DNA from: Gemmatimonadota bacterium
GTDB lineage: Bacteria; Gemmatimonadota; Gemmatimonadetes; Gemmatimonadales; GWC2-71-9
Assembly: GCA_039586365.1 (NCBI GenBank)
Contig: JBDHKN010000054.1
Location: forward strand, 1 to 32,433
Length of the DNA stretch: 32,433 nt
Reading direction: 5' to 3'
The notes under the pieces were generated by a model. The model saw only the letters and a program-made list of their open reading frames with translations, did no database searches and was not told where the DNA came from. The number at the start of each line of letters is the position of its first letter. Position 1 is the stretch's first letter. A program made the position numbers and the translations under genes. Below, in pieces: positions 10,467 to 32,433 of the stretch.

Positions 10467-10588
10467 ATCCTCGTTTCGGCGGTGGACGCCCCCTCCGCGC
10501 CGCACCCCCGCTCGCGTCTGCTGCGCAACAATTGCGTCCCTGGCGATCCCAAAAGCCCCTTCCTGACGGGGCTTCCGCGTGTGTGTGC
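10467..10588 (+). repeat. Copy 1 of a 122-bp dispersed direct repeat (degenerate tRNA-Phe 3' half plus hairpin)
   Basis: Aligns ungapped with 24155-24276; about 20 mismatches in 122 by manual count. Confidence 0.9.
10551..10574 (-). terminator. Hairpin/terminator-like element inside repeat copy 1
   Basis: AAGCCCC-N8-GGGGCTT; ends in GGGGCTTTT on the minus strand; stem identical in copy 2. Confidence 0.5.
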
Positions 10589-10616
10589 CCTGGCTTCACT
10601 GCCCGACAGCCCTCGA

Positions 10617-10634
10617 ATGTGCGTAGATGTGCGT
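10617..10634 (+). repeat. Tandem ATGTGCGT dimer, putative integrase arm-type site
   Basis: ATGTGCGT at 10617 and 10627 (10-bp period); related motif at 14064, 24021 and 26143-26161 (minus). Confidence 0.55.
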
Positions 10635-10691
10635 TGGGCAAGCTCCGACTGCCACCCCTGAAACCTTCTGCCTAATTCTGACGTTCTGGTG

Positions 10692-10729
10692 TATAGATGG
10701 ATCATCCATATAGTGGACGGTCCACATAT
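10692..10729 (+). promoter_or_regulatory. Putative PadR operator (two tandem palindromes)
   Basis: ATGGA-TCA-TCCAT (10697-10709) and GTGGA-CGG-TCCAC (10713-10725), 16-bp period, upstream of padR. Confidence 0.65.
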
Positions 10730-10823
10730 CGGTCCTGGTGACGCTGGGGTTGGCAACGTGGTTGGCGCCGGCCTGGCCAGCGGAGGATCCCGGGGCCCGC
10801 AACAGCCATCACGGGGGCTCACG

Positions 10824-11183
10824 ATGCCGACACTCGATCCTCGATCCCTTCTTCCCCTTACCCACCTCTCCTACCACGTCCTGCTGGCCTTGGCCGACGA
10901 TGACCGCCACGGGTACGGGATCATCAAGGAAGTCCTGGCCCGAACCGACGGACAGATGGAGCTGGAGACTGGGACACTGTACACGGCTCTGAAGCGCCTG
11001 AAGGATGAGGGGCTCATCGACATCGTGGGACGGCGGGAGCGGCCGCCGGGCGAGGACGATCGTCGGCGCACTTATCGCCTGACACCTTGCGGGAGGGAGG
11101 TCCTGGCGGCCGAGTCCCAGCGCCTGGCTTCTCTGGTGGGGGTGGCCATGGAGAAGCGTGTCCTTCCTGCCACCTCAGCCTGA
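10824..11183 (+). CDS. PadR-family transcriptional regulator (ADOP-associated)
   Basis: LLALADDDRHGYGIIKEV...GTLYTALKRL...RRRTYRLTPCGR; ATG at 10824 after GGGGG. Confidence 0.92.
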   Translation: MPTLDPRSLLPLTHLSYHVLLALADDDRHGYGIIKEVLARTDGQMELETGTLYTALKRLKDEGLIDIVGRRERPPGEDDRRRTYRLTPCGREVLAAESQRLASLVGVAMEKRVLPATSA

Positions 11184-11193
11184 GGGTTGAGCA

Positions 11194-13947
11194 ATGAGCA
11201 TATCATCGAGGGTCCTCTTCCGCCTCTACCGACTCCTGATGGGTCTCTACCCCTCCGAGTTCCGGGCCGAATGGTCGGGCGACATGCTGCGGACAGTGAT
11301 TGTGAGGGAAGGAGCGCTCGGTGGTGAGGCCGGAATGCTGCGGCGGCTCCGATTCTGGCGTCGCGAGCTGTTTGCGGTGCTCGGTACCGCCCTGCGGCAG
11401 CGCTGGAAGTGGGCACGGATCAGGGATTCCTCCGTGGCTTCGAGAGGGACCGATGCCCGGCAGGAACGGTCCACGATGGCGCAGGGCCCCAGACGCAGGC
11501 GACCCACAGCGATAGAGCCCATCCTCCGAGACCTTCGCTTTGCCTTGCGGCAACTGCTCCGACGTCCCGGCCTCTCCGTCGCGGCGGTGCTGACGCTTGC
11601 GCTGGGTATCGGGGCAAACACTGCCGTGTTCAGCGTCGTGAGCGGCGTCCTCCTGGAGCCGCTGCCTTACCCGGAGGAAGACCGCCTCGTAAGGGTCTAC
11701 GACGAGAATCCGAACTTCCCCCGTTTCCCACTCGCCCCCGCAGCGTTCAACGACTACCGGGAGCTGGAGTTGCCCTTCTCGGGCTTCGCCACATACAGCC
11801 GAGTTAACCTCCAGCTTTCAGAAGATGATCGGCCCGAGCAGTTGACGGGGATGCGCGTCTCCAGCGGGTTCTTCCAGGTGCTGGGTATGGAACCCGCGCT
11901 GGGGAGAGGGTTCACCCGGGAGGAGGAATTGGCGGGCAATCACTACCAGCTGGTGCTGGGTTATCAGCTTTGGCAGCGCCGATTCAACGGTGATGCGAGC
12001 GTGCTAGGTCGCACCCTGGAGTTGTCGGGGCGGACCTTCACTGTGGTGGGCGTGGCGCATCCGGACCTTCGGTCGCCGGGAGGCAGCTTTCGCTCGGTGG
12101 CCCACGGAGAGACCGTGGACTTGTGGTGGCCACTGGTGTTGGGCCCCGACGAGCAACCTCGCTTCTCCCATTACCTCAACGGAGTCGCCAGGCTCCGGAA
12201 CGGTGTTTCGCTGGAGCAGGCCGAGGCGGCCATGAACGTCATCGCCGCCGAGGTGGTGGCCCCCTTCGTCGACCCCGAGGATGAAGGAGACGCCTGGACC
12301 ATGAGCCTGGTCCCCCTTTCAGAGGACATCGTAGGACACGCCCGGTCCACGCTCCTGGTGCTGTTGGGGGCGGCCAGCCTCATCCTCCTCATGGCCTGCG
12401 TCAACATGGCGGGTGTAATGCTCGCCCGCGCTGCGGAGAGGCAGGGGGAGATCGCGCTTCGGATGGCTATCGGAGCCAGCCGGGGGCACCTGATCCGGCA
12501 GATGCTGGTAGAGGGAGCGGTGGTAGCGGCCCTGGGTGGGGTCGCCGGTGTGGTCCTGGGGGTGGTTGGGCTCTGGCAGCTCCTGGGTCTGGCTCCCGAG
12601 GTGTTGCCCAGGATTTACTCCATCGGGCTGGACGCAAAGGTCTTGGGCTTCGCAGTGGGAGCCACCGCCCTGACGGCTCTGGCCGCCGGCCTGGTCCCGG
12701 CATTCCATGCACGGCGCTTCGAGTTGGCCGGCACTCTCAAGGCCGACGGCGGCCGCGCCATCCGGAGTGCGGTCCGATCTCGGCGCGTGCTGGTGGTTTC
12801 CCAGGTTGCCCTGGCCGTGGTCCTCCTGGTAGGTGCGGGGCTCCTCCTCCGCAGCCTGGTAGGGCTCCAGCACGTGGACCCCGGGTTCAGGCCGGACGGA
12901 GTGCTCACTGCCAGGTTGAGCCTGCCCTCTGCCCGCTACTCGTCGGCCCAGGACAGAGCAGAGTTCTATCGAGAGTTGGAGAGCAGACTGGAGGGCTTGC
13001 CAGGCGTCTGGGCTACGGGGGTCTCGTATGCCCTTCCGTGGAGCGGATACGACGAGAACTCGGACTTCGAGATCGAAGGGTGGGAGCCGCCGGAGGACCT
13101 GTTGATGTCCTTGCGCTACCACTTCGTGGGCGCGGACTTCCTCGAGGCTATCGGGGTCCCGCTATTGGAAGGGCGGAACCTCCGGGACAGTGATGACAGG
13201 AGCCCCGATTCCCCCTTCGTGGCCCTAATCAATGAGGCGATGGCCCGTCGCTTTTGGAGAGAGCAGCCAGGCGCCGGGAATCCAGTCGGAAGCCAGCTCC
13301 ATTTCTGGGGACAGGTAGTGACGATCGTGGGGATCGTGGGGAACATCAAAGACGGTCCGTCCAGTGCCGAAACCCGGCCCGCTGCCTTTTTTCACATCCT
13401 CCAGTTTCCCCGCTCCAGTGCGTCAGTGGCGCTCCACACCAGGGGCGACCCAATGAGTCTGGTGGGATCCCTGCGTGAGGTTGTGGCGAGCATCGACCCG
13501 GCTCTTCCGTTGGCGGAGGTCCGCCCCCTGAGCGAGATTGCAGGTGCCACCACGGCTCCGGCCCGTTTCACCGTGCTCCTGGTGGGCGTGTTCGCGGCGA
13601 TGGCGCTCACACTTGCGGTGGTGGGGCTTTACGGTCTCCTGTCGTATCTGGTGGGACAACGGAGTCAGGAGATCGCGGTGCGCATGGCTTTGGGGGCCGC
13701 CGGCGGACGAGTGCTTGGGCTGGTGGTGACCGAAGGGTTGCTCTTGACCGCTTTCGGCCTGGTATTGGGCATCGCGGCTAGCCTGGCTCTGGCCCGGTTC
13801 CTGGCCTCGCTCCTGTTCGGCATCACCCCGTTCGATCCCCTCACCCTTGTGGGAGTGGCAGTGGCGGTCTTGGTGGTGGCTGGGACGTCCTGCCTTCTTC
13901 CGGCAATGCGGGCTGCGAGGGTGGAACCCGCGCGGGCCATGCGGTGA
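11194..13947 (+). CDS. Duplicated orphan ABC permease (ADOP; 2x MacB_PCD/FtsX)
   Basis: DLRFALRQL...LTLALGIGANTAVFSVV, LILLMACVN, EIALRMAIGA, second EIAVRMALGA; no ATPase gene nearby. Confidence 0.93.
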   Translation: MSISSRVLFRLYRLLMGLYPSEFRAEWSGDMLRTVIVREGALGGEAGMLRRLRFWRRELFAVLGTALRQRWKWARIRDSSVASRGTDARQERSTMAQGPRRRRPTAIEPILRDLRFALRQLLRRPGLSVAAVLTLALGIGANTAVFSVVSGVLLEPLPYPEEDRLVRVYDENPNFPRFPLAPAAFNDYRELELPFSGFATYSRVNLQLSEDDRPEQLTGMRVSSGFFQVLGMEPALGRGFTREEELAGNHYQLVLGYQLWQRRFNGDASVLGRTLELSGRTFTVVGVAHPDLRSPGGSFRSVAHGETVDLWWPLVLGPDEQPRFSHYLNGVARLRNGVSLEQAEAAMNVIAAEVVAPFVDPEDEGDAWTMSLVPLSEDIVGHARSTLLVLLGAASLILLMACVNMAGVMLARAAERQGEIALRMAIGASRGHLIRQMLVEGAVVAALGGVAGVVLGVVGLWQLLGLAPEVLPRIYSIGLDAKVLGFAVGATALTALAAGLVPAFHARRFELAGTLKADGGRAIRSAVRSRRVLVVSQVALAVVLLVGAGLLLRSLVGLQHVDPGFRPDGVLTARLSLPSARYSSAQDRAEFYRELESRLEGLPGVWATGVSYALPWSGYDENSDFEIEGWEPPEDLLMSLRYHFVGADFLEAIGVPLLEGRNLRDSDDRSPDSPFVALINEAMARRFWREQPGAGNPVGSQLHFWGQVVTIVGIVGNIKDGPSSAETRPAAFFHILQFPRSSASVALHTRGDPMSLVGSLREVVASIDPALPLAEVRPLSEIAGATTAPARFTVLLVGVFAAMALTLAVVGLYGLLSYLVGQRSQEIAVRMALGAAGGRVLGLVVTEGLLLTAFGLVLGIAASLALARFLASLLFGITPFDPLTLVGVAVAVLVVAGTSCLLPAMRAARVEPARAMR

Positions 13948-14053
13948 CGCCAATGGGGTTGTAGGGCCAAAGATCTCGGCGCTCGAACACAGGCAGCCGA
14001 CTTTCGACTAACGACCCCTGGCTCCCGCGCGTTAGCTGTCATACAGCTTGCGG

Positions 14054-14071
14054 ACGTGTCCCGATGTGCCC
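14054..14071 (+). repeat. Arm-like dimer just downstream of the integrase stop
   Basis: ACGTGTCC/ATGTGCCC at 10-bp period; TGTCCCGATGTGCC matches TGTCCCAATGTGCC at 24014-24027 (13/14). Confidence 0.55.
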
Positions 14072-14080
14072 TGAAGACTC

Positions 14081-14218
14081 CTACTCGCTGTGGAGCGCGG
14101 CCAGCCTGGCGGTGCCCTCGCGCAGGTCGGACTCGGCGACGATCGAGTACCGCCGGTAGACGGCATCGGTCTTATGGCCGGTTAGCTTCATCGCCGCCAA
14201 ACGTGAGACTCCCGCGCG
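14081..14218 (-). pseudogene. 3' remnant of a tyrosine recombinase/integrase
   Basis: Manual translation RAGVSRLAAMKLTGHKTDAVYRRYSIVAESDLREGTARLAALHSE*, the GH...Y catalytic box II; in-frame TAA at 14240-14242 and no HxxR upstream. Confidence 0.85.
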
Positions 14219-14303
14219 CTGAGGCGACTGGATGACCCCTTAAGGCAGGATCGGCACTGGAACGACCTTGGTTAGTGGCTCAATGGTACGGATCGGTTGG
14301 TGC

Positions 14304-16325
14304 TCAAGCTGGGTCGGTGCGCTGCGTGCTACTCAGCGATGACCCACCCGACGATAACGGTTCTTCGCCTGCCCCTTTCAGTGCCGCCTCGACCTCCGAA
14401 CGTCCCTCCAAGAGCCGCTCAATGTCGCCAGCGATCTCGCTGGCGTTGGTGAGGTCCTGAGTAATTCCCCCGACCGTTCCACTGCCAGCGTGCAAACGAA
14501 GCAGACCGAGCCGGATGGTCTCCAGCGAGGCAACCGCATCCTGTAGCCTGACCTGGGCCCCGTCGCGCGCCCGCTCGAGATCGTCCTTGACTTGGTCACG
14601 CTGCACCCTCAGGTCGGGATTGGAAACAACCGAAGCCGCACGTTTTGAGAATCCGCTGTCCCCTTCGCCTCCGATATCGAAGAGCATTCCATTCAACTCT
14701 TCGATGCGTTGCCGCATCCCCAAAGCATCCTTCTCGAGACGATTCACAAGTTCGGGGAGTTCTTCGAGATCCTTTTGTGCTGCCTTCGGCAATTCTTCGA
14801 AGAGACGCTCGGCAGCCATCCCAATCGCCAACTCGGTGGGTCCATAGGCCGACCCCGCATTCGGGAGACCCTTGAGCCGGACGCCTGCCGCCTTGAACAA
14901 CCACTTGCCCACACGACTCTCCCAGAACTTGCTCCACCATTTCCCGGGCAAGCCACGCCGGCTACCACCTCTCACCGCCGTGAGGGGAATCCCCACCAGA
15001 CTGGCGACCAACCCCCCCGCCGTGAGCGCACCCAAACCTCCAAGGACCAAATCCGAGATGGCATTCAGATCTAGGATGTATGCCAAGGCCGTCCCGACTC
15101 CCATTGCGGCTAGGCCCCCGTACATGAGTCCCAGGGACATCCGATCGACCCAATTCGTCTCACCCCCGCGCTCGAACGCCAGTTCCTCCTTGCGTGTCTG
15201 AAGATCGTCTTTGAGTGCTAGGAGAAGCTCTTGACGCCCATATCCCGACCCAAGGAGCTGGCGTGCCATGCGTAGGAGCATCCCGATTGGGACAACACCC
15301 ATTACGAGGGCCCCCGACAGCATGAAAAGGGCGATGATAGGTTCTCCACTCACACCCGCAACCAAAGCGACCACCGCTGCGTAGGCCACGAACAGAGCCC
15401 ACAGCGGCAAGCCACTCAACCGCTCGCGGTTTTGCTTGAGGAACACGCGAAGTGGCACCGGCATTTCTCGCCGCACCTCGATGGATTGGCTCAGTGCCAT
15501 GGCGAGGTCTTCGGCATTTGCGAACCGATCCGCGGGGGCCCTGGCGAGACAACGATCGATGGCCTGGGCCAGATGTTTAGGTACCTCGGGCGCGACACTG
15601 GAAAGGAGCGGCGCAGCTTGGGTGATGTGCTTGGCGAGCACCGCCGCGGCGGTCTCACCCCCGAAGGGGACTCGACCGGACAACATGTAGTATCCGACCA
15701 CTCCAAGGGAGTAGATATCACTCCGCTCATCCACTGTCTCGCCGCTCGCCTGCTCGGGACTCATGAATTCCGCGGTTCCCAACACCTCACCTCTTCCCGT
15801 GGTTCCTGGACTCTCGCGAACCTGAGCGATTCCGAAATCCGTCACCAACGCGCGCGCGCTGCCCACCTCGACTAGGATGTTGTCGGGTTTGACGTCTCGG
15901 TGCACCACGCCCTGGACGTGTGCATACGCGAGCGCCCATGCAACCTCGCGCAGGATCCGAACGGCTTCGCCCGGTGGAAGAGCTCCTCGCTCCCGGATCG
16001 CCGAGCCGAGCGTAAAACCGTCGACATACGCCATCGTGAAGAACACGAAGCCGCCCACGTCGTCCACTGTGTAGATCGGAACGATGTTTGGCTGTGAGAG
16101 CTTTGCCGCTGTGCGCGCCTCACGCATGAACCTCTCGCGCATCGTGGGATCGGCTGCCATGTGTGGCGGCAATAGTTTGAGCGCAACCGGACGGTCGAGC
16201 GCGACTTCATGGGCCAAATACACGATCCCCATCCCACCTCGGCCGAGTTCGCGCTGGAGGGAATATCTGCCGGCGAGCGCCTCCTGGAGGGTTATGAACT
16301 CCTGGTCCGGAATCCGGTCGGTCAT
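14304..16325 (-). CDS. Hanks-type Ser/Thr kinase with transmembrane helices and C-terminal coiled coil
   Basis: GRGGMG, VALK, HRDVKPDN, DFG, GTAEFMSPE and SDIYSLG intact; about 4 hydrophobic segments; heptad-rich tail. Confidence 0.92.
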   Translation of the reverse strand: MTDRIPDQEFITLQEALAGRYSLQRELGRGGMGIVYLAHEVALDRPVALKLLPPHMAADPTMRERFMREARTAAKLSQPNIVPIYTVDDVGGFVFFTMAYVDGFTLGSAIRERGALPPGEAVRILREVAWALAYAHVQGVVHRDVKPDNILVEVGSARALVTDFGIAQVRESPGTTGRGEVLGTAEFMSPEQASGETVDERSDIYSLGVVGYYMLSGRVPFGGETAAAVLAKHITQAAPLLSSVAPEVPKHLAQAIDRCLARAPADRFANAEDLAMALSQSIEVRREMPVPLRVFLKQNRERLSGLPLWALFVAYAAVVALVAGVSGEPIIALFMLSGALVMGVVPIGMLLRMARQLLGSGYGRQELLLALKDDLQTRKEELAFERGGETNWVDRMSLGLMYGGLAAMGVGTALAYILDLNAISDLVLGGLGALTAGGLVASLVGIPLTAVRGGSRRGLPGKWWSKFWESRVGKWLFKAAGVRLKGLPNAGSAYGPTELAIGMAAERLFEELPKAAQKDLEELPELVNRLEKDALGMRQRIEELNGMLFDIGGEGDSGFSKRAASVVSNPDLRVQRDQVKDDLERARDGAQVRLQDAVASLETIRLGLLRLHAGSGTVGGITQDLTNASEIAGDIERLLEGRSEVEAALKGAGEEPLSSGGSSLSSTQRTDPA

Positions 16326-16327
16326 GG

Positions 16328-16513
16328 CTAGGTATTATGGGGTCCGCAGCACGCCTGGGCGAGATCTAGCCGCAGCACTTTCACCGCCACCTTGCGGTGA
16401 TGCTTCAGGTCCTCGGCGAGATACACGGTCGCCATCCCACCGGAACCAAGCTCTCGCTCGATCCGGTAACGGTCGGACAGCGCGGTCTTGAGACGTTCCA
16501 ACAGGTCGGCCAC
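16328..16513 (-). pseudogene. 5' stump of Ser/Thr kinase (N-lobe only)
   Basis: [47 protein letters not shown], then unrelated residues and stop. Confidence 0.88.
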
Positions 16514-16640
16514 GGGGACGGCCTCCGATTCGCGATTGCATTAACCTACGATGCGCCTCCGAAGACGGCCAGATTGACGCCCAGCGCAACGGCTGGCGGG
16601 GTCACAGCAGCCTCAAAGAGCGCCTTAAGAGACCTCTCCG

Positions 16641-16660
16641 CGGTGATTACTCGGTGATTA
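16641..16660 (+). repeat. Tandem CGGTGATTA dimer (11-bp period), possible arm-type site
   Basis: CGGTGATTA at 16641 and 16652 in a non-coding junction. Confidence 0.45.
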
Positions 16661-16901
16661 TTGAAGCAGAAAACAGGAGTTCCTCGACATCGCGGAGGCT
16701 CAGAGTGAATCGACGGTAAAGCCAAACGCTGTGGGTGATGATTTCAGGTGGGGAGCGGTAGCCACGGTAGCTGGTCGTATTCGTTCTCATAGGAAGAGGA
16801 TGCCTGGACTGAACTCAAGTCGACAATACCGTTCCAAGAAATAGCAGACGCGACGATCGGGAGCACGGGTCACTGATGGGTATGTATGAGAGGTTGGAGT
16901 A

Positions 16902-16940
16902 TACTAGTCACTTGACTATTAGTCTATCGACTAGTAGTTT
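16902..16940 (+). promoter_or_regulatory. sigma70-type promoter overlapped by putative PadR operator
   Basis: TTGACT(16912)-17 bp-TAGTTT(16935); TAGTC-N4-GACTA twice (16905-16918, 16920-16933). Confidence 0.75.
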
Positions 16941-16969
16941 GGCTGCGCGTAGTTGAACACGGAGCAGCC

Positions 16970-17347
16970 ATGAAGCCATCACCAATAGATAAACCTACGG
17001 CCGTGAACCAGCGGGACTTCCTCCTACTTTTGGCGCTCACCGAGGGTCCGCGCCACGGGTACGGGCTATTGCAGGACGTCATGCAACTCACAGACGGCGA
17101 GGTGAAGTTCGATCCGGCAAACCTATATCGGTCCGCCAAGAAGATGATCGAACAAGCCCTTATAGAGCCGCACGACACACCAAAGGACGTTGCCTCGCTC
17201 GCGGGTAGTAATGCAGCGCGTCGCCAATACTTTGCGATCACCGAAAAGGGCTTGAACCTGGTGAGAGCGGAGGCGGCGAGAATGGACCGGCTGGCGCGGT
17301 TCGCAAGGGCGAGGAAACTGATACCGGAACCGGGGAGCCGACGTTGA
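16970..17347 (+). CDS. PadR-family transcriptional regulator
   Basis: LLALTEGPRHGYGLLQDV...DPANLYRS...RRQYFAITEKG; GGAG RBS. Confidence 0.92.
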   Translation: MKPSPIDKPTAVNQRDFLLLLALTEGPRHGYGLLQDVMQLTDGEVKFDPANLYRSAKKMIEQALIEPHDTPKDVASLAGSNAARRQYFAITEKGLNLVRAEAARMDRLARFARARKLIPEPGSRR

Positions 17348-20085
17348 GCCAAGAGCGGGATTCACTCCCACAAAGAATCTACCGCTTTCTCCTACTCGCC
17401 TATCCGCCTGAGTTCAGGAGACTCTATACCGCAGAAGCGGTCGAGACTTTTCGTGAACTGCATCGCGACGAATGGAGGTCCGGTGGCGTGCAGGCGGTCG
17501 CGTCGCTCTGGTTGCGTTCGGTGTCGCAGGTTGTCCGGTTTGGCTTCCGAGAGCGGTTGTCCCACGGACTGAGCCGCGCACACGCGATGCGATCGAGTGT
17601 TGGCTTTGCCAGACAACTTCTCCAAATCACGAGATCCCGCAGGAAACAGGCAGGAAGCGAGCATTCACGAATGGGCCAAAGACCAGGCTGGGGATTGATA
17701 CATTCCGCAGTCGCAGACATGCGGCATGCGTTTCGTACGTTTCGCCGGCACCCCGGTGCGATCCTCGTTGCTGTTGTGTCACTCGGAGTAGGGGTCGGGG
17801 CAAACGTCACGATCTTCAGCGTCGTCGACGTGTACGTGTTCCGGTCCCTCCCGTTTCCCGATCCAGACCAGCTCGTCCACGTGTATAGCACCATGCCGGA
17901 GCGGGGCTGGAACTTCAACAGCGTCTCGATCCCTGTCTTCCTCGATTTTCGCGAGCAGAGTCGGACGATGGACATCGCCGCGAGCTATCCCCGCGACGTC
18001 AACCTCTCAGGCGGCGACCGACCTGAAAGAGTGGGCTCGGAGCGGACGTCGTGGAATTACTTCGAGCTCTTCCAGGTTCAGCCGATACTTGGGCGAACTT
18101 TCGGACCTGAGGAAGAGGGAGACGGTAACCACCGCGTCGCGATATTGAGCCACGGGTTGTGGCAGCGCCACTTCGGGTCGGACCCCTCGCTGCTGGGGCA
18201 GACGATCCAGCTAGACGCGGAGCCTTTCACTGTCATCGGTATTATGCCCCCGGACTTCCGCTTCGGCCTGACGCTAACCGATGTGTGGACGCCATTCGGC
18301 ATCACCGGCGAAGAGAGCCGTGGAACCAAAAGGCTCAATCCGGTTGGGAGACTTCTTCCCGGCGCAACCGTGATGCAGGCGAATACCGACGTGGCTGCCA
18401 TTGCCGAGCAGCTGGCGGAGGGTTATCCGGAGATACACGGAGGTTGGACCGCCGGCGCGAGAGATCTGGATGACTACATCGTTCCGGTTGAAGCTCGAGT
18501 CGGCATGCTGATTACCAGCGTTGCCGCAGCTCTTGTACTGCTGATCGCATGCACCAACGTTGCCAACCTTATGCTGACGCGGGCCACCGCACGCGTTCGC
18601 GAGATCGCGGTGATGGGAGCGCTTGGTGCAAGCAGAACCCGAATTGTACGTCACCTGTTCACAGATTCGATGGTCGTTGCATTCTTGGGTGGAATCCTGG
18701 GGATTGTGATATCGGTGGCAGGCATCCGCTGGTACATATCTCTCATCCCCGCTTGGGCACCACGCGTGGAAGAGGTTGGGATCGACGGCAGAGTCCTGGC
18801 GTTCGCCGTAATCATGACCACGCTGACCGGCATCGTATTTGGCGTCGCCCCCGCACTCAGGAACTCTCTACCCAACTTCTCCGAGTCGCTCAAGGAGGGC
18901 GCCCGTGGAGTGTCGGGTGGGCGGGGCAGTCGCCTTCGGAAAGTGCTTGTCGTGTCGGAAGTGACAATGGCTTTGACGTTGCTGGTGGGATCGGCTCTAC
19001 TGGTGCGAGGCTTCTTCAATCTGCAGTCATTGAATACGGGATGGCGCGAGGAGAACGTTCTCACTTTCCGTCTCTCACTGCCTCAGAGTGAGTACCCGGA
19101 TGGAAAGTCGGTGAGCAGCTTCTACCGACCGCTGATTCAACAATTGGAGACGCTGCCCGGCGTCGAATCGGCAGGCGCCATTTCAAATCTGCCGATGCAA
19201 AGCAACTCGAATACGCTGTACGACGTGCCCGGGCAGGAGGCGCCGAATCCCCAACAACGCCCCCTTGCCGAATATCGCTTCATCTTGCCCGGGTATTTTC
19301 CGGCAATGGACATCGTCTCGGTGCGGGGCCGCAACTTCGACGAAGGTGACCGTCCCGACACACGGCCCGTGGCGATCGTGAACGAGATGCTCACGGAACT
19401 ACACTGGCCGAACGAAGACCCGATCGGCAAGCAGGTGGAGTTCTGGGGCGAGACTCGCGAGATCGTGGGCGTCGTGGAAAACACAATCGTCTACGACCAG
19501 GTGACTCGACCAATGATTTTCTTGTCAGCGTTCCAGTCGCCCAGAAACAGCATGAGCGTTGTCCTGCACACGTCGGGCGAGCCCGCTGCACTGGTGGAAA
19601 CCGTCAGAACTGAGGTGTCGTCGCTTGACCCGAACCTCCCGCTCTACCGCATAATGAGTATGAAGCAGGTCGTGCGCGAAAGCCGTCAGATGGACACATT
19701 GATGGCGAAGATGATGGCCGCGATGGCTGTCGTCGCTCTCGTTCTGTCGGTGGCGGGCGTATACGGAGTAATCTCCTGCTCGGTCGCCGAGCGCACCCAG
19801 GAGATGGGAATCAGGATGGCGCTTGGAGCGCGTGAGGCCAGCGTGCTGGCTCTGGTGCTGCGGCAGGGCGCGGCGCTAACCGGGATAGGGATACTCGTCG
19901 GGATTCTCTCGGCATCGCTGGTTGCCAGAGGTATGTCGCTATGGCTCTTCGGAGTCAGTCCGTTCGATGCTGTCTCGTTCGGTGCGGCAATTGTCATCCT
20001 GCTTGGCTCGGGCATTGCGGCGAGCTACTTCCCGGCACGCAGAGTCGCGAGGCTGGATCCACTCAAAGTGCTGAGGTATGAGTAG
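17344..20085 (+). CDS. Duplicated orphan ABC permease (ADOP)
   Basis: DMRHAFRTF...SLGVGVGANVTIFSVV, LLIACTNVANL, EMGIRMALGA, DPLKVLRYE; TTG start overlaps padR stop. Confidence 0.93.
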   Translation: MSQERDSLPQRIYRFLLLAYPPEFRRLYTAEAVETFRELHRDEWRSGGVQAVASLWLRSVSQVVRFGFRERLSHGLSRAHAMRSSVGFARQLLQITRSRRKQAGSEHSRMGQRPGWGLIHSAVADMRHAFRTFRRHPGAILVAVVSLGVGVGANVTIFSVVDVYVFRSLPFPDPDQLVHVYSTMPERGWNFNSVSIPVFLDFREQSRTMDIAASYPRDVNLSGGDRPERVGSERTSWNYFELFQVQPILGRTFGPEEEGDGNHRVAILSHGLWQRHFGSDPSLLGQTIQLDAEPFTVIGIMPPDFRFGLTLTDVWTPFGITGEESRGTKRLNPVGRLLPGATVMQANTDVAAIAEQLAEGYPEIHGGWTAGARDLDDYIVPVEARVGMLITSVAAALVLLIACTNVANLMLTRATARVREIAVMGALGASRTRIVRHLFTDSMVVAFLGGILGIVISVAGIRWYISLIPAWAPRVEEVGIDGRVLAFAVIMTTLTGIVFGVAPALRNSLPNFSESLKEGARGVSGGRGSRLRKVLVVSEVTMALTLLVGSALLVRGFFNLQSLNTGWREENVLTFRLSLPQSEYPDGKSVSSFYRPLIQQLETLPGVESAGAISNLPMQSNSNTLYDVPGQEAPNPQQRPLAEYRFILPGYFPAMDIVSVRGRNFDEGDRPDTRPVAIVNEMLTELHWPNEDPIGKQVEFWGETREIVGVVENTIVYDQVTRPMIFLSAFQSPRNSMSVVLHTSGEPAALVETVRTEVSSLDPNLPLYRIMSMKQVVRESRQMDTLMAKMMAAMAVVALVLSVAGVYGVISCSVAERTQEMGIRMALGAREASVLALVLRQGAALTGIGILVGILSASLVARGMSLWLFGVSPFDAVSFGAAIVILLGSGIAASYFPARRVARLDPLKVLRYE

Positions 20086-20300
20086 GAGTGTGGTGGCGCG
20101 TGAGCGAGCCGAGGCGGAGCGACTCCAGGATGTCGTCGCGCTTGCTCGGGCACCTTCATCACCGAACCAGCACGCGGGAAAGGACCCAACCCCGCGTCGC
20201 GCAGGGCTATTCTACCGCAGCTACCGTGTTGCCTAGCCCGACCTGAGTCGCCGGGCCAGCGCCCACGCAACCATTTGCCTCACTCAAGCCACTAACAGAC

Positions 20301-20864
20301 GTGACCGAACAATCGCAATCTCCGGCGCCGCGTGACCGCGAACTCGCGGATCGAGTGCTGGTCGACGGCGACGAGACCGCGTTTCGTATGCTGTATCGCA
20401 GGCATACACCAGCGCTGTACCAGCTGGTGTTGCGCATTCTGGGGGGTAATCAGCCCGACGCGGAGGACGTCGTACAGGAAGTGTGGATACGGGCCGTGGA
20501 AGGGCTGGGCCAGTTCCGATGGGGGTAGGCGCTCCGGACCTGGCTAGTTGGTATCGCCGTGAATCTCTGTCGGGGACTGTTCCGGAAGGGAGACAGGAAC
20601 TGGATCGAGGTCAACGACAGCTTGGAGTTGACACAAGTCATTCCAGCGGATGACCACCGGATTGATCTGGAGGCCGCCTTAGCGGCGTTGCCACCAGGCT
20701 ATCGCACGGTCGTCGTGTTGCACGATGTCGAAGGCCTCACCCACGCCGAGATTGGAGAACGGCTCGAGATCTCGGCCAACACGTCTAAGAGCCAGCTGTT
20801 TCGTGGTAGACGTATGCTACGAACCCTACTGGCGCCGGGCGGGATTCAAGACGCGAGGATATGA
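20301..20864 (+). pseudogene. ECF sigma factor interrupted by one in-frame TAG
   Basis: GDETAFRMLYRRH...DAEDVVQEVWIRA..QFRWG*ALRTWL...LPPGYRTVVVLHDVEGLTHAEIGERL...TSKSQLFRGR; stop at 20526-20528, same frame continues. Confidence 0.85.
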
Positions 20865-21427
20865 ATATGCAGGACAGCGACGGGACGGACTTGAGTGCGG
20901 CAGAGCGAGCCGCCTTCGCGGCACTGACCAGTGAGCGTGATTCGGGCGCACTGCTGGAGGAGCGCACTGTCAGGGCTCTGCGGAGACGAGGTCTACTGAG
21001 GGTGGCCGGGCACCGGTGGTTTGGATTGCGACCGTCCTACTGGCTGACTGGAATCGCGGCAGCGGTGGCACTGTTCGTTAGCGGCGTGACAGTTGGGCAG
21101 TGGCTCGGCTCACGCGCCGTGGCAGGGCGGCTCGTGCAGGCGCAACAGCAGACGGCGTTGCAGGCAGCTGCGGCAGTGCAGCGTGCCGGATCGGCTTACG
21201 TCAATGCGCTGACAGCGTTGGCCGAAGTGGCCGATTCGTCCGGCGATGGCGCTCTGGACCAGGGTAGGGAAGCCGCGCTCACGGCATTGTACGCGGCTGC
21301 ATATGAACTGTCACACCTCGCGCCGGAGGACCCGATCGCGGTCACGATTCGCGAGCGACTCGAGGGAACCGAACTGGGTGGTCAAGCAGATGATGCCGGG
21401 CAGCTCAGACGAGTCGTTTGGTTCTGA
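20861..21427 (+). CDS. Putative membrane anti-sigma factor
   Basis: ATGA overlap with sigma stop; short N-terminus, one TM helix (WLTGIAAAVALFVSGVTVG), helical C-terminus. Confidence 0.65.
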   Translation: MNMQDSDGTDLSAAERAAFAALTSERDSGALLEERTVRALRRRGLLRVAGHRWFGLRPSYWLTGIAAAVALFVSGVTVGQWLGSRAVAGRLVQAQQQTALQAAAAVQRAGSAYVNALTALAEVADSSGDGALDQGREAALTALYAAAYELSHLAPEDPIAVTIRERLEGTELGGQADDAGQLRRVVWF

Positions 21428-21447
21428 ACCACGGTAAGGGAGGCACC

Positions 21448-22542
21448 ATGTTTGGGATCGGATCCAGGATGGCGAATAGCGCATTGGTAGTGGCGCTGAT
21501 CGCGACTCCGACAGTCGCACTGACGCAGGAACAACAGGGTTGGTGCAAGAAGAGTGGCGAGTTCGTAGTCGGAGCGCTGGGCTATACGGAACTCGAGTGC
21601 AACTGCGAAATCGGTTTGTTCACCGATACCCAGCAATTCATCTATCGCTTCAGGTCGGAGCCCGTGATCGGGGGGGTCAAGAGCGGTGGGCCCGCCGAAG
21701 GGAAGCTCAGGGCCCGCGACGTGATCACCGCGATCGACGGATATCTGATCACGACGGCGGAAGGTGGCAGACGGTTCGGCGGGCTCGAGCCGGGCAAGCC
21801 TGTGAACCTTACGGTGCGCCGCGACGGCCGCGAAAGGGACGTAACGATCACTCCGGTGGCGGAGTGCGAGCGAGTCACATTCGATACACCGCCGCCTGCA
21901 CCAGGGCAGCCGGTACGGCCGCATCCGGCGGGTCAGCCGGATCGGGGGCTGGCTGCTTCGAGGGCCATATCCGGCAGGCGGCCACCTGGAATGCCAGTGC
22001 CGCCACCGTCGCCCAAGGACATCATACCTGAAGGTTGGATGGGATTCAGCTTCTCCTGCTCGGACTGTTTTGCCAGTCGCGATGGCGAGACCCTTGTCTG
22101 GAGCTTCACGGAGAGGCCGACGGTCGACCGCGTCGAGCCAGGCAGCCCGGCGAGCCGGGCTGGTCTCAGGGCGGGGGACCTGCTGATCGCCATCAATGCC
22201 ACTGCGATGACGAGTCCCGAAGGCGGCCGACTGTTCGGTGCGGTTCATCCCGGAGATACCGTTGCCTTCTCGTACGTTCGAAACGGTCGCGAACGCTCAG
22301 CCCAACTCGTGGCGGGCGAGCGCATCGGGGAAGGGTGGGAGTTGTTGCGGCCACCTCCCAAAGCACCCGCACCCAGCCCCGGCGACGAGCCGCAGCCGGG
22401 TACGACCCGCTTCTCCGGGACCGTCGGCGACGCTCACATCTTGGTTACCGGCGGACCGATCACGGTGACCCGCACCGACGACGAAATCGTGGTTCGGAGC
22501 CAGGACATTACCGTGCGAATAAGGAAGACCGGAGGTAGCTGA
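21448..22542 (+). CDS. Secreted protein with two PDZ domains and Pro-rich linkers
   Basis: GGGAGG RBS; signal-like N-terminus; GGVKSGGPAEGKLRARDVITAIDG and RVEPGSPASRAGLRAGDLLIAIN PDZ motifs; no protease domain seen. Confidence 0.85.
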   Translation: MFGIGSRMANSALVVALIATPTVALTQEQQGWCKKSGEFVVGALGYTELECNCEIGLFTDTQQFIYRFRSEPVIGGVKSGGPAEGKLRARDVITAIDGYLITTAEGGRRFGGLEPGKPVNLTVRRDGRERDVTITPVAECERVTFDTPPPAPGQPVRPHPAGQPDRGLAASRAISGRRPPGMPVPPPSPKDIIPEGWMGFSFSCSDCFASRDGETLVWSFTERPTVDRVEPGSPASRAGLRAGDLLIAINATAMTSPEGGRLFGAVHPGDTVAFSYVRNGRERSAQLVAGERIGEGWELLRPPPKAPAPSPGDEPQPGTTRFSGTVGDAHILVTGGPITVTRTDDEIVVRSQDITVRIRKTGGS

Positions 22543-22946
22543 CATTTCCCCGCCATTCCCCCTTCGTAGGTCCATAGCTCGGCCCTCCGGGCAGCATCCC
22601 TGGGTTTCGCGCTATGCCGCTGTGCCTGCTCCCGGGCCGTGGACATCCGCCTGTTGACGGCGGACTCGACGCTACCGGCCGCTAGCTTCGAGGCCGCTCT
22701 ACGCGTCCCAGGCGCTTGCCGCCGCAGCTGGCCTCATAGGCGCTTCAGCAGCCACCCATGGCACACGCCACCGCAAGATGGTCGAGACGATTTTTCAGTT
22801 GCCATTGATACAGACAGTTGCGAGCCCCGGGCGGCCGAGTCCCGGGTGGGGGTTGAAGGCACGACTAGCGGTCCGCAGCGGGACAGCTCCAATTCTGCCG
22901 TGCATACTTGCGAGGGGTGGATTGAGATTCCTACACGGAAGGGAGG

Positions 22947-23360
22947 CTACTTGCCTGGGAGCAGCCTATACCGGCCTAGCCGCCCGAAGTCGGCGTCGAA
23001 CGTGAAAACGTCCGTGACCTTGAGCCGGTCCAACAGAACGAACGAGGTGCAATCAGTGAGTGAAAAGGGGTGGTGCCGGTGCTTCCGCAACAGCCGCCAC
23101 GCTGCCTCTTCCGTTTCTCGATCAACCCACTCCATGCGGATGACTCCCGATCGCAGTTTCTCGCCCAACTCGATCTTCTTGTCAGGATAGCGCGCGAACC
23201 AGGACATCAGCTCATCGAACACGTACGTGCTCGTAACGAGTTCGGCGAACTCTCCGGCCTTGACCAGATCGGCGAATCTGGCCGCGCGCCGATGATTGAT
23301 GTCGTCCGCTTCCTCGAGAGCGATGAAGGCGCTCGTGTCCATGAACAGCCGGCCGGGCAT
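22947..23360 (-). CDS. PIN-domain (VapC-like) toxin
   Basis: [11 protein letters not shown]...YVFDE...SLTDCTSF...VFTFDADF acidic PIN residues. Confidence 0.9.
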
Positions 23361-23361
23361 G

Positions 23362-23595
23362 TTACTTGGGACGGTCGTGGTCGACCGAGCCACGCTTCCG
23401 CCCAGTGTGTATGGGGGTCTCGCCGAATGGAAAGTGCACGGCGGCCGAGCAGTCAGCGTTCTTGCGAAGATCCGCTGCAACCACGCGACGTAGATACTCG
23501 CCGACACTGAGCCCCAGACGGCGGGCCTGTCTGTTGATGTCGTTCTTCATCTGCCTCGGCAGCAGGAGCTGGATGCGTTCCTCGGAGATGGGCAT
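23362..23595 (-). CDS. Ribbon-helix-helix (CopG-like) antitoxin
   Basis: ERIQLLLP...[24 protein letters not shown] tail; directly upstream of the PIN gene. Confidence 0.85.
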
Positions 23596-23606
23596 CGCGA
23601 CCTCAT

Positions 23607-23651
23607 ATGCTCATGTGCATACAAGCTATATGAGCATGTTCATGCTGACAA
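23607..23651 (-). promoter_or_regulatory. TA promoter with RHH operator array
   Basis: Minus strand TTGTCA(23651-23646)-17 bp-TAGCTT(23628-23623); four ATGnnCAT palindromes at 23607, 23613, 23630 and 23636. Confidence 0.7.
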
Positions 23652-23734
23652 GGTGCATCGCCCCACAAGTGCAATTCAAACGGCGAGCTGTTCGGGCTAC
23701 ATAGGCAAAACGACGCAGCCAGAAGCGGAATGCC

Positions 23735-23950
23735 TCAGTGTTGCGAGAACTCCCTATCTCGCGCACACCTATAGGCGCTCGGGCCGAGGCTGGCAGCGAG
23801 TTCCGGGCGCAGGACCTTGATGGCTACCTGACGGCGATGCTTGAGATCCTCGGCGAGATAGACCGTTGCCATGCCACCGGCGCCGAGTTCCCGCTCGATC
23901 GTGTAGCGGTCGGCGAGTGCTGCTCTGAGACGGTCCGGTACATAGGCCAC
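23735..23950 (-). pseudogene. 5' stump of Ser/Thr kinase (N-lobe only)
   Basis: [50 protein letters not shown], then unrelated sequence. Confidence 0.88.
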
Positions 23951-24010
23951 GATGACGGAGCCGCGGTGGCTCCAGCACCAAGCTACGGCTCAATGTCGCA
24001 CGCAGCCAGG

Positions 24011-24276
24011 TGTTGTCCCAATGTGCCTCGAAAGTGCGCGGACTGGGGTACACCGGTGTCACTCAGTGACACGACTCGACAGCGTCGAACCGCGTCACGA
24101 TGTCATTCGGTGTCAGTGCGTACCGATTTGGATGGCAATGTCTGCGGACTGAAAATCCTCGTGCCGGCGGTGGACGCCCCTACCCCACCACAACACCACT
24201 CGCGTCTGCCGCGCAACAATTCCGGCCCTGGCCATGCGAAAAGCCCCCTTCTGACGGGGCTTCCGCGTTGGTGTGC
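24011..24276 (+). mobile_element. att-like site: arm motif, TGTCA repeats, tRNA-Phe-derived core and repeat copy 2
   Basis: TGTCCCAATGTGCC (24014-24027); GTGTCACT-C-AGTGACAC palindrome (24056-24072); GGACTGAAAATCC (24146-24158); 24155-24276 matches 10467-10588. Confidence 0.7.
24144..24190 (+). pseudogene. Degenerate tRNA-Phe(GAA) 3' half
   Basis: gcGGA-CTGAAAA-TCCTC-GTGCC-GGCGG-tggacgcccctacccc-ACCA: anticodon loop, variable loop, T-stem 5' strand and ACCA are recognisable; TTCGA loop and 5' half absent. Confidence 0.75.
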
Positions 24277-24366
24277 GGTGGGCTTCATAGCCGTCCCGTG
24301 CGGAGATACTCACGGACGGCAGCTTGCCGCGGCCCGGAAACGATCGAAGTCACCGGTCATCGACGT

Positions 24367-24588
24367 TTAGCGTTCCCGTCGTCCCTCGCGCACCGCAGTG
24401 ACGATTTCGTCACGACACAAGCCGAGCTTTACGCCTTTGACGCCTAGCGGTGACTCATTAGACCGTTCGGGACGCAGTACAAATATCTGCCCATCGCGTA
24501 TGAGTATGCGCACTGATCCTACGCGGCGGGCCTCCTCGAGTACCTTCGCGAATCTCTGCCTCGCCTCTGAGTAGGTGTATACCTTCAT
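24367..24588 (-). CDS. Phd/YefM-like antitoxin
   Basis: MKVYTYSEARQRFAKVLEEARRVGSVRI..RDG..SPLGVKGV; ATGA overlap with upstream PIN stop. Confidence 0.85.
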   Translation of the reverse strand: MKVYTYSEARQRFAKVLEEARRVGSVRILIRDGQIFVLRPERSNESPLGVKGVKLGLCRDEIVTAVREGRRER

Positions 24589-24824
24589 TCCGACACCTCC
24601 AAAACATCCAGACCGATCTCCTTCGCGGCACGCACCAAACGGCCATCCAACGTCAACACGGGACTGTGGTGCAAACGTGCACACTGAAGCACGTACGCGT
24701 CGTAAGCATAGATCTTCAACTCAGCCGCACTCGCCAGGGCATCGGCCAAGTCCACATCAACGAACTGAATCGGGATCTCGGCGTAGGTTCTCAGTGCCTT
24801 ATGCACCTGTGCGAGATGCCTCAC
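24585..24824 (-). pseudogene. 5'-truncated PIN-domain toxin
   Basis: Has YAYDAYVLQCA and LTLDGRL but lacks the N-terminal DTS motif; begins 1 bp after a kinase-tail stop codon. Confidence 0.8.
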
Positions 24825-24825
24825 G

Positions 24826-25065
24826 CTACTGCGGCAAATTCACCCGCCGACGCAGATCGTGGTACCGCGGGTCGTCGTGGAGGCTCTCGATAGGCGGCCA
24901 GGCACTCAGATACGGCACGCCAGGATCGTGCTCCTCGAAACCGCGCTCCAGCCAATCGAGGGTTAGGCTGTCCTCCCCGGCGAGACCATACACCGTGGCG
25001 ATCTCGCCTCTGCCCGATTCTGGGACTCGTCCCTCCCAAATCCGAGCAAGAAGGCGAGGCTTCAC
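24826..25065 (-). pseudogene. 3' stump of a TPR-tailed protein (kinase/TolB-like-TPR type)
   Basis: IATVYGLAGE...LDWLERGFEEHDP...LHDDPRYHDLRRRVNLPQ*, homologous to the tail at 26305. Confidence 0.8.
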
Positions 25066-25094
25066 GAAGTAATGCTGAGCTGAGAGTGTTTACA

Positions 25095-25138
25095 GATAAA
25101 GGACTTACCGCGTCCGCTGTCCGCGGCACACACGTTGC
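25095..25138 (+). promoter_or_regulatory. Putative sigma54 promoter with upstream IHF-like site
   Basis: GGCACACACGTTGC (GG 25125-25126, N10, GC 25137-25138); GATAAAGGACTTA at 25095-25107 resembles WATCAANNNNTTR. Confidence 0.55.
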
Positions 25139-25221
25139 CTCAGGTCGACCTGGAACGTTCGATCCGTACGTCTATTCGTGCCGGTCTGCGACCACAAATG
25201 CTGAACGGGGAGGGTTCACGC

Positions 25222-26115
25222 ATGAAACGGATTCTGGTAGCTGCGCTGGTTTCGGGAGTCCTGGCCGGCCCGGCCATGGCACAGGATGGTTCGACCCTTG
25301 AGGAGGACCGCGCGGGTGTTGAAGCCGCGGCCCGCGATTACATGGAGGGGGCTTTGTTCGCCAACGCTGATCGCATGACCAGGGCGGTGCACCCCGGACT
25401 CACGAAAGTCGTTGTTGGCAGAAACCGCCTGACCGGCAGACAGTTCCTGAGCTACAACACTGCCACGCTGTTGGTGGAGTGGGTCCGCAGTGCCGAGGAG
25501 CGGATGGCGAACGTCGACAAGAACGTGGATGTCACCATCTTTGATATCGATACCAGACTTGCCACCGCGCGTGCGATCGGTTCACTGTGGTACGACTTCC
25601 TGCAGCTCGCGAAGATCGATGGTGAATGGCGGATCGTCAACATTCTGTGGGCTCCCAACCGCGTGGTGGGTCCCAACCGCTCGGCGGCCGAAGAGGAGGC
25701 GCGAGTGGTTCCGGATGCGAGAGACAGTGCTCAGGTCATGGCGCAGGCGCTCAACTACATCGAGGGCTCCTTCACAGGTGACGCCGGAAGGATGGAAAGT
25801 GCCCTTCATCCCGAACTAACCAAGGTAATGTTGGCCTACGATCCTACCACGCACCGGCCATACCTTCGCACGATGGGAGCGTCGGACCTCATCGAGGAAA
25901 CGCTCGCCGGGATGGGAATGGTACCGGAGGACGAATGGCACATCGATGTGGAGATCCAGGATGTCTCGCGCGGCATTGCCTCCGTGAAAGTCACCTCTTC
26001 GATGTACATCGACTACTTGCAGATGGGTAAGGTCAACGGCACCTGGAAGATCGTCAACGTGCTCTGGGTGCCTAACCCGGAGAGGCCGAGGCTTAGGCCG
26101 AGCCTGAGGCGCTGA
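25222..26115 (+). CDS. Secreted protein with two tandem NTF2/SnoaL-like (Lumazine_bd_2-type) domains
   Basis: Signal peptide ending AMA-Q; two repeats A.DYMEG...AVHP.LTKV...DFLQLAKIDGEWRIVNILW and NYIEG...ALHPELTKV...DYLQMGKVNGTWKIVNVLW. Confidence 0.85.
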   Translation: MKRILVAALVSGVLAGPAMAQDGSTLEEDRAGVEAAARDYMEGALFANADRMTRAVHPGLTKVVVGRNRLTGRQFLSYNTATLLVEWVRSAEERMANVDKNVDVTIFDIDTRLATARAIGSLWYDFLQLAKIDGEWRIVNILWAPNRVVGPNRSAAEEEARVVPDARDSAQVMAQALNYIEGSFTGDAGRMESALHPELTKVMLAYDPTTHRPYLRTMGASDLIEETLAGMGMVPEDEWHIDVEIQDVSRGIASVKVTSSMYIDYLQMGKVNGTWKIVNVLWVPNPERPRLRPSLRR

Positions 26116-26140
26116 TCGACTACAGTGGACGGTGCCGGTC

Positions 26141-26220
26141 CGAGGCACATTCAACGCACATGGGCCCGGGAGCCGCGTCCCGACGGGCCTCCCGATACGG
26201 TCAGAGGATTCTTAGTCCTC
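26141..26220 (-). mobile_element. Second att-like site in inverted orientation
   Basis: Minus strand GAGGA-CTAAGAA-TCCTC (26220-26204), then ATGTGCGT-TGA-ATGTGCCT (26161-26143); AATGTGCCTCG is identical to 24020-24030. Confidence 0.55.
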
Positions 26221-26304
26221 GGTACACCACTGCAGCCAGTGCGGAACGACAGCAGGCAGCACCCGCTCGTGCTTGAGAGTGGAAATCGAATCGCGGACTC
26301 GACA

Positions 26305-26750: not shown

Positions 26751-26761
26751 AAGACATTACG

Positions 26762-32315: not shown

Positions 32316-32401
32316 AAAAGCCCCGCATCAGGCTGCCGTCGATCGTTGGCTTGGTGGGTGCCGCGGGTATCGGCCTGGTCATCGGAAGCACGATCCCGTG
32401 A
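32303..32401 (+). pseudogene. Possible 3' stump of an unrelated gene with a hydrophobic tail
   Basis: Other frame reads IAELKKPRIRLPSIVGLVGAAGIGLVIGSTIP* with GC-rich third positions, starting where kinase homology stops. Confidence 0.4.
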
Positions 32402-32433
32402 AGAACCCATTCACAAGCGCTGTTTGCTGGCCC

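Follow-up and report, generated by a model that had tools for sequence, protein, structure and literature searches.

The subject of this work is a stretch of 32,433 nucleotides (the window), which is the whole of contig C94 in the 5.44 Mb, 132-contig assembly of a Gemmatimonadota bacterium (genome G000). In it two displaced 3' halves of tRNA-Phe, both split in the T-loop by a 44-nt insert, stand among recombination arm sites that share the motif ATGTGC. We consider it probable that these junctions belong to a tandem array of islands built at the tRNA-Phe anticodon loop by a lambda-type integrase family, and that the insert is a separate, non-autonomous element lodged in dispensable tRNA copies. 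The array is a real, decayed accretion of the islands of one integrase family, a known kind of structure in which the tiny kinase-led modules and the inverted cores (called Q below) are unusual. The insert appears to be undescribed and is more surprising than the array; a previous interpretation of this DNA made from its letters (the sequence-only reading) had overlooked it in both tRNA halves. A full-text literature search, with subscription journals and supplements outside its reach, found no description of the 44-nt insert or of the array, and a literature search found none of island accretion in the Gemmatimonadota lineage. Passages of PMC3733652, PMC4383910, PMC9897764, PMC2330249 and PMC5704250 describe neither insert nor array.

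Arm sites, cores and the integrase family

Neither ARAGORN nor Rfam gave any match in the window. The single tRNA-Phe(GAA) gene that ARAGORN reports in G000 is located on contig C125, and the window piece at 24146 is 96% identical over 26 nt to this sole intact gene. Three tRNA-Phe-like cores had been proposed by the sequence-only reading; those at 10467 and 24146 proved to be true tRNA-Phe 3' halves, and the third, at 26204, is without tRNA flanks. An origin of 26204 from tRNA-Lys or tRNA-Leu was considered and rejected, since the core has no tRNA half beside it and its centre varies. Site 26204 is an inverted second core that is not tRNA-derived.

The junctions begin with a left arm, continue into a tRNA 3' half and end in a right arm, and the three arm types (L, R and Q) all carry ATGTGC. 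In the L arm some 129 bp separate the dimer from the anticodon-loop core to its right, the R arm lies behind the tRNA 3' half and contains a hairpin, a single GTGTGC and a dimer, and the Q arm is inverted, shortened and R-like and adjoins a symmetric core. As in lambda-type att sites, tandem arm repeats flank the core on both sides and the overlap is 7 bp. Four junctions of the window had been credited with ATGTGC, mostly as tandem dimers. Two of these dimers are exact, those at 10617/10627 (plus strand, spacing 10 bp) and 26161/26150 (minus strand, spacing 11 bp; GCACAT at 26145 and 26156). The left-arm dimer lies at 24021/24032 rather than at 24011-24028 and has one mismatch (second copy AAGTGC), and 14064 is a lone exact copy whose would-be partner at 14054 differs by two mismatches.

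A check of dimer frequency bore out the motif, as nine exact dimers were seen genome-wide versus 0.63 expected, six of the nine falling in arm sites of C94, C37 and C125. Taken alone, neither dimers with one mismatch (25 seen, about 29 expected) nor GAGGA-N7-TCCTC, which had been put forward as a search motif together with the dimer (5 seen, 11 expected), is enriched. Profiles of the L, R and Q arms were made from homologous stretches, whose training copies match by construction; in a search of all 132 contigs the matches were confined to C94, C37 and C125. Columns of the arm motif are 94-100% conserved versus 80-86% in the remaining arm columns. One exact dimer (G000:C31:1460) lies outside the arm profiles. 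An R arm stands 3' of the intact tRNA-Phe in G000, G002, G003, G006, G007 and G602, and in G001 and G004 only the hairpin is found there, the R arm being absent. The tandem arm words of related integrases that use other tRNA targets, a second tRNA-Phe element in G002 among them, are by eye different, and hence the ATGTGC motif is specific to the family. In G002 (L031:9116-9330, contig C73) a variant ATGTGC left arm is fused to a 3' half of tRNA-Arg type, whose anticodon loop has TCT; this sister element shares the arm word and has a different target.

Thirteen Q cores were compared. Their half-sites are conserved and the centre is least conserved (about 50% versus mostly 80-100% in the core arms), and on the opposite strand most begin with CT and end with AA, as in the Phe loop. 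One site in G007 is a hybrid in which an L arm is joined to a Q core. The hybrid core and the fragment ends fit crossover at the 7-nt anticodon-loop core, one of the tRNA crossover classes given in the Islander table note (PMC4383910), and are consistent with the position given in the sequence-only reading. The geometry of the Phe and Q cores predicts that inversion could occur between them; no instance was observed.

The sole integrase trace in the window, a 46-residue remnant that the sequence-only reading had noted beside one junction, is real and belongs to the family of the full-length protein P0002 (Table 1). P0002 is 89% identical to a remnant in G007, and its C-terminus is the peptide RHIDAH, as encoded by the reverse-complement ATGTGC dimer (seen in the protein sequence only); in G003, G006 and G007 the tail of the integrase gene shares sequence with the R dimer. 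The structure model of P0002 has a mean predicted local distance difference test (pLDDT) score of 89.6 and an N-terminal three-stranded sheet plus helix, a domain of the arm-binding type. Phage lambda Int (PDB 1z1g) was the top match in a fold search with this model, at 17% identity, and the catalytic set R217, K245, H315, R318, H341 and Y350 (R-K-H-R-H-Y) is invariant in 51 homologs. P0002 as modelled is a lambda-type integrase fold with a predicted arm-binding domain. Its tail and its lambda Int-like fold support ATGTGC as the predicted arm motif of this integrase family, and they speak for the proposal that one such family acted here repeatedly. P0003 is a kinase-integrase fusion, as is the frame of the G007 remnant. 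No intact cognate integrase was found in G000 itself, which has only C-terminal remnants, in eight genomes of the genus (best match 49%), in 251 genomes of the family (two matches, one in G608; best 54%) or in five insert-rich genomes (best 46%). Viral contigs gave no cognate integrase and a single 40% match.

Arrays behind tRNA-Phe

Arrays of this kind begin at intact tRNA-Phe genes. In G007, of the same genus as G000, the gene is followed on contig C98 by six L matches and three Q sites, together with two junctions that carry the insert and two remnants of integrases. In G602, of another genus, it is followed on C419 by R, Q and L junctions and a full-length tRNA duplicate. The intact tRNA-Phe of G000, for which the sequence-only reading had suggested a search, has an R arm and a first module behind it on C125. 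On all three contigs the tRNA 3' fragments are co-oriented with the intact gene and downstream of it. Since these arrays and the C125 module start at tRNA-Phe, the claim that integration took place far from any intact tRNA is not general. Synteny gave no placement for C94, since floA occurs in several copies and the GH94 gene of G006 is at a great distance from tRNA-Phe. At 10467 the GH94 flank abuts the right edge of the core directly; in G002 (C47) the same flank runs on without an att site, the homology stopping just before 10467, and thus 10467 may be a secondary-site or deletion junction.

Cargo is wholly different between species. When the window cargo was compared with 43 loci at 76% identity or more, only floA and GH94 matched, and module order is therefore not comparable. 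A kinase gene starts within 320 bp of the L arm in 8 of 21 L arms (chance about 0.002 each), and G000 has 62 kinase N-terminal matches. The same module was never seen in two orders. Low-depth contigs from four sequencing runs listed no joint at an att site and no circle junction; read cover drops after 24108 in two of the four runs, which we do not count as evidence. The junctions of the window are incomplete, that at 10467 having no L arm and that at 24146 no R dimer.

These data bear on an alternative, close to the sequence-only reading, in which the array is an active, integron-like platform, with integrase-less kinase or PadR-ADOP cassettes moved between junctions, or inverted at Q, by an integrase acting in trans. 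Arm dimers better conserved than their flanks, the kinase starts near left arms, the left arm/Q core hybrid of G007, the variable centre of the Q cores and the full turnover of cargo between species would agree with such a platform. We nevertheless hold it to be unlikely. The absence of an intact cognate integrase from G000 and from the genus and family genomes, the incomplete window junctions and the lack of any module in two orders argue against it, and kinase adjacency can be one inherited island end. Moreover, P0002 scored only 20.9 with the IntI model, far under its cut-off of 435. The description of the array as integron-like is likewise unsupported, because no integron integrase, intact cognate integrase, module reshuffling or circle junction was found.

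About a dozen more displaced tRNA 3' halves occur in G000 (on C51, C3, C8, C37, C56, C75, C76, C78 and C21). These are of Trp, Arg, Pro, Lys, Ala, Asn, Val and Leu types with uninterrupted T-loops, several on kinase-rich contigs, suggesting further tRNA-anchored arrays in this genome. Parallel arrays at tRNA-Met/Ile(CAT) and tRNA-Cys (L365-L379 in G693, L227, L231, L234) have other arm words and the same T-loop insert, and in several of them kinases start beside the left arm.

The 44-nt T-loop insert

The insert splits both tRNA halves of the window between T-loop positions 55 and 56 (T55 and C56). Its insertion point is constant, between GT(T/G) and CR, and target duplication is absent; the junction table shows at most one C repeated at the right end of some copies. 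A sequence model found the insert in 24 of 150 family genomes (17 of 78 genera) and in none of the 79 genomes of a phylum sample outside the family. All nine stretches from a metagenome pattern scan are the insert in tRNA fragments. A pattern scan of GTDB, which covered 27 of 64 parts, returned 119 rows that were mostly coding-sequence noise, with seven genuine inserts besides one already counted; one bin labelled Kiloniellales carries a copy, the assignment being that of the label. The exact pattern, less sensitive than the sequence model, occurred in 3 of 400 other genomes of the class, chance-like by matched text, and none of the 19 pattern matches in viral contigs is the insert.

Our census, for which loci were chosen by hand among pattern and model matches and tRNA labels were taken from anticodon patterns, has 63 rows, 61 distinct copies and at least eight tRNA types (Met/Ile2 15, Phe 10, Trp 7, Pro 6, Leu 5, Ile 4, accessory tRNA-like 4, Arg 2, Cys 2, Pro anticodon stem 2, unclassified 6). 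The two copies in the Pro anticodon stem lie outside the T-loop, between GGGGTT and CAG. A full 5' half is present in six rows, namely a Phe gene (G602), a Leu gene (G601) and four accessory genes with odd anticodons. The Phe and Leu genes each have an uninterrupted sibling, and we infer that the four accessory genes are dispensable. Long-variable-arm tRNA-like genes with CGC or CAC anticodons, several with the insert, were noted at G000:C102:22917-23002, L228, L395, L416 and L417; at L416:1110-1671 an open reading frame-less group II intron (Rfam) lies right behind a hairpin, downstream of an insert-bearing tRNA-like gene.

In the fold of the insert a stem of 5 bp encloses a loop of 22-25 nt (63% C, 6% G) and a 3-bp stem comes after it; these covarying stems are seated on the intact T-stem as a three-way junction. 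Pair counts (55 rows giving 49 distinct sequences of 42-46 nt, 3 of them unparsed, leaving 46) speak for the covariation, with T-A 24, C-G 21 and C-A 1 for the outer pair of the small stem and G-C 39, C-G 4, A-T 1 and T-C 2 for the first pair of the large stem. The fold, together with the six full-length tRNA-like genes that bear the insert, might indicate a functional RNA, such as a mini-intron that is spliced out or a structured product of the displaced tRNA half. However, both insert-bearing standard tRNA genes have uninterrupted siblings, the insert has no Rfam match, there is no promoter-like site within 23900-24450, and a length of 44 nt is well below that of group I or II introns. We regard this explanation as highly improbable. 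Longer variants of about 80 nt lie at the same motif, as do other inserts of about 45-80 nt between GTT and CR (L049, L229, L401, L423) that share the layout of the insert, with a hairpin from the first base and then a CGC...GCG stem; in L401 and L423 two different inserts share a single tRNA-Pro fragment. G/T-rich variable spacers between TACCGYC repeats upstream of tRNA-Met (G000:C61:1236-1300, L046) have a composition like that of the reverse strand of the insert loop.

At Phe junctions the T-stem allele is that of the host gene in 5 of 5 cases in G000 and 2 of 2 in G007, and in G602 all three insert-bearing displaced halves match the host allele, one with a further change, as would be expected of displaced halves of host type. 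Entry of the insert after displacement is favoured by these alleles and by the copies between GGGGTT and CAG. Inserts in the same tRNA type across genomes are more alike than those in different types (0.748 versus 0.692, a value that none of 2000 label shuffles reached), and inserts within one array are most alike (0.825), which favours spread among homologous fragments or inheritance with the att site.

Alternatively the insert could be immobile now, a fixed part of the left arm with crossover 3' of it (the T-loop/acceptor junction class), so that it always ends in the displaced copy. This would account for insert-free working tRNAs and for clustering by tRNA type. We think it improbable, as a presence in eight or more tRNA types, full-length copies and an anticodon stem would require numerous insertions, each on its own, the T-stem 5' of the insert has the allele of the host, and the hybrid core indicates crossover in the anticodon loop. 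In addition, a C-G variant of the first pair of the large stem, specific to G601, is found across tRNA types there.

Searches for a mobiliser of the insert were negative. Left-end and right-end patterns in the genus genomes gave only tRNA-context copies or chance matches, no small GIY-YIG gene in 10 genomes adjoins an insert, and the Y1 transposase genes of G000 and G006 lie by coordinates away from every insert match. The T4 homing endonuclease SegB recognises the T-loop motif GGTTCRANTCC in many tRNA genes (PMC2330249), but is only a precedent for a nuclease of such specificity.

We propose that islands would have been inserted one after another at the tRNA-Phe anticodon loop by a lambda-type tyrosine integrase family, each newcomer displacing the preceding tRNA 3' half. 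The integrase would then have been lost by deletion, often with fusion to kinase genes, to leave modules of a few kb resembling cis-mobilizable elements (CIMEs). The insert would enter after displacement through a sequence-specific enzyme acting in trans and would spread among homologous fragments by gene conversion or homing. An insert-bearing junction is predicted to be unable to restore the sole tRNA-Phe, and modules would therefore be confined to recombination with other junctions.

Several points weigh against this scheme. Intact DNA of a parent island was not seen, nor was a parent element or enzyme for the insert, and the link between P0002 and the arms comes from the protein tail only. 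C94 is not placed relative to the tRNA-Phe contig (C94 and C125 end in the same repeat) and its left junction, at 10467, joins a non-tRNA flank. The pair counts for the insert stems come from related sequences rather than independent events and are inflated by that relatedness. Single copies fold no better than shuffles (z -0.7 to -1.3), and the greater likeness of inserts of one tRNA type also fits inheritance with the att site. One junction in G002 bears a non-host T-stem letter. Finally, the insert is absent from the dozen or so non-Phe halves of G000 and from all four listed Phe junctions of G002.

The window and its relation to known systems

The PadR, ADOP, kinase and toxin-antitoxin assignments of the sequence-only reading were borne out (Table 1). 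The label of the fragment at 26305-26757 derives from its likeness to the fragment at 24826-25065 and to kinase ends in relatives. Window positions 2-646 contain floA, which is multicopy in G002, G003 and G007 (85-93% protein identity), mainly on short contigs, as if it were mobile cargo. A short repeat at 32303-32433, found also at G000:C125:1-145, C37:22417-22543 and C63:67389-67495, cuts off a kinase at the right end of the window, cuts a junction on C125 and breaks the assembly.

Table 1 Features of the window
Feature	Position	Strand	Remark
tRNA-Phe 3' half, first block (anticodon-loop 3' edge to T-loop position 55)	10467..10484	+	without left arm
44-nt two-hairpin insert, T55/C56	10485..10528	+	
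tRNA-Phe 3' half, second block (remaining T-loop, acceptor strand)	10529..10546	+	
Right arm R: hairpin, single GTGTGC, ATGTGC dimer 10617/10627	10553..10635	+	same arm behind intact tRNA-Phe on C125
Cargo: PadR regulator and ADOP permease	10824..13947	+	TIGR03434 above cut-off
Single ATGTGC, R-arm remnant beside integrase stop	14064..14069	+	ATGTGCCCTGAAG likewise ends the C125 R arm
Tyrosine integrase C-terminal remnant (14084-14221; stop 14081-14083)	14081..14221	-	74% over 46 aa to P0002
Cargo: Ser/Thr kinase, kinase N-terminal stub (16328-16513), PadR and ADOP, ECF sigma factor with neighbour, PDZ protein, PIN toxin and antitoxin	14304..23595		
Kinase N-terminal stub	23735..23950	-	start 71 bp from left-arm dimer
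Left arm L: ATGTGC/AAGTGC dimer 24021/24032, then about 110 bp of conserved arm	24021..24144	+	
tRNA-Phe 3' half, first block	24146..24172	+	7-nt anticodon-loop core at 24149-24155
44-nt two-hairpin insert, T55/C56	24173..24216	+	
tRNA-Phe second block, then shortened R arm without dimer	24217..24291	+	
Cargo: Phd antitoxin, PIN fragment, kinase-like C-terminal fragment, lumazine-binding-family protein	24367..26115		
Q site: inverted arm dimer, symmetric core GAGGA-N7-TCCTC at 26204-26220	26138..26230	+	
Kinase-like C-terminal fragment, ending beside Q core	26305..26757	-	no Pfam match

The array is a compact example of island accretion, and its tRNA-anchored modules may feed the expansion of kinase paralogs. 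We consider the insert the more important of the two, as it is structured and is targeted exactly to the motif that is most conserved in tRNAs, and no mobiliser is known for it. It conceals displaced fragments from island finders that need continuous tRNA matches, and it is a concrete substrate for hunting its enzyme. A bolder reading, which we rate as doubtful although conceivable, is that this 44-nt protein-less element is among the smallest site-specific mobile DNAs, homing to GTT/CR, killing redundant tRNAs and locking junctions that serve, with the Q cores, as a platform for cassettes mobilised in trans. If so, junctions would be locked out of the working tRNA, and the large repertoire of Ser/Thr kinases and PadR-ADOP in these Gemmatimonadota would be diversified thereby.

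One known system close to the array is accretion of CIMEs. PMC5704250 describes how elements integrate, decay by losing the integrase while their att sites remain, and then receive further insertions that give chimeric attI junctions. Here too integration genes have been lost and att sites retained, but no conjugation genes were seen, the cargo is a few kb of signalling genes, and there is an additional, inverted non-tRNA Q core with the same arm motif. The Islander work (PMC4383910) describes displaced tRNA 3' fragments that mark island ends, an anticodon-centred crossover class and an integrase gene beside the att site. The tandem arrays it treats share with ours the displaced fragments, the anticodon-centred crossover and a tyrosine integrase beside the att site, but require one integrase per member, and no intact one was found here. 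The damage reported there is a small deletion near the discriminator, whereas our fragments carry a 44-nt insertion.

In phage lambda, tandem arm repeats lie on either side of the core. Our junctions have the same arrangement with an overlap of 7 bp, and P0002 has the three-domain integrase fold; unlike lambda Int, with which it shares only 17% identity, its arm binding is putative. Like integrons, the array consists of small modules parted by repeated recombination sites. It differs in that IntI is absent from the window, the junctions are double-stranded att sites of arm-core-arm form, and the modules are multi-gene, have their own regulators and lie in both orientations. In integrons attC sites follow individual genes that lack promoters, and in attC the box AAC precedes GTT; the insert has by eye GTT before AAC, the opposite order.

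The insert resembles CGTC/GTAG repetitive extragenic palindromic (REP) sequences and miniature inverted-repeat transposable elements (MITEs) in being short, GC-rich, hairpin-forming and non-coding and in containing CGTC. These REPs have stems of 8-9 bp, loops of 4-5 nt and many extragenic copies (PMC3733652), whereas in the insert the stem has 5 bp and its C-rich loop 22-25 nt, and another hairpin, of 3 bp, is present. Unlike REPs and MITEs it is low-copy and almost wholly confined to tRNA motifs, and unlike MITEs it has neither terminal inverted repeats of 15-30 bp nor a target duplication. It also differs from REP/IS200-IS605-type elements, as no Y1 gene with the same ends was found by coordinates in G000 or G006, and from the group I and II introns of tRNA genes, having no ribozyme match in Rfam and intact siblings. 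SegB, whose cut lies close to the 3' end of the tRNA and which mobilises its own gene (PMC2330249), has no linked counterpart beside the insert in the 10 genomes checked. The likeness to SegB lies in the target, the T-loop motif GGTTCRANTCC, which the insert destroys.

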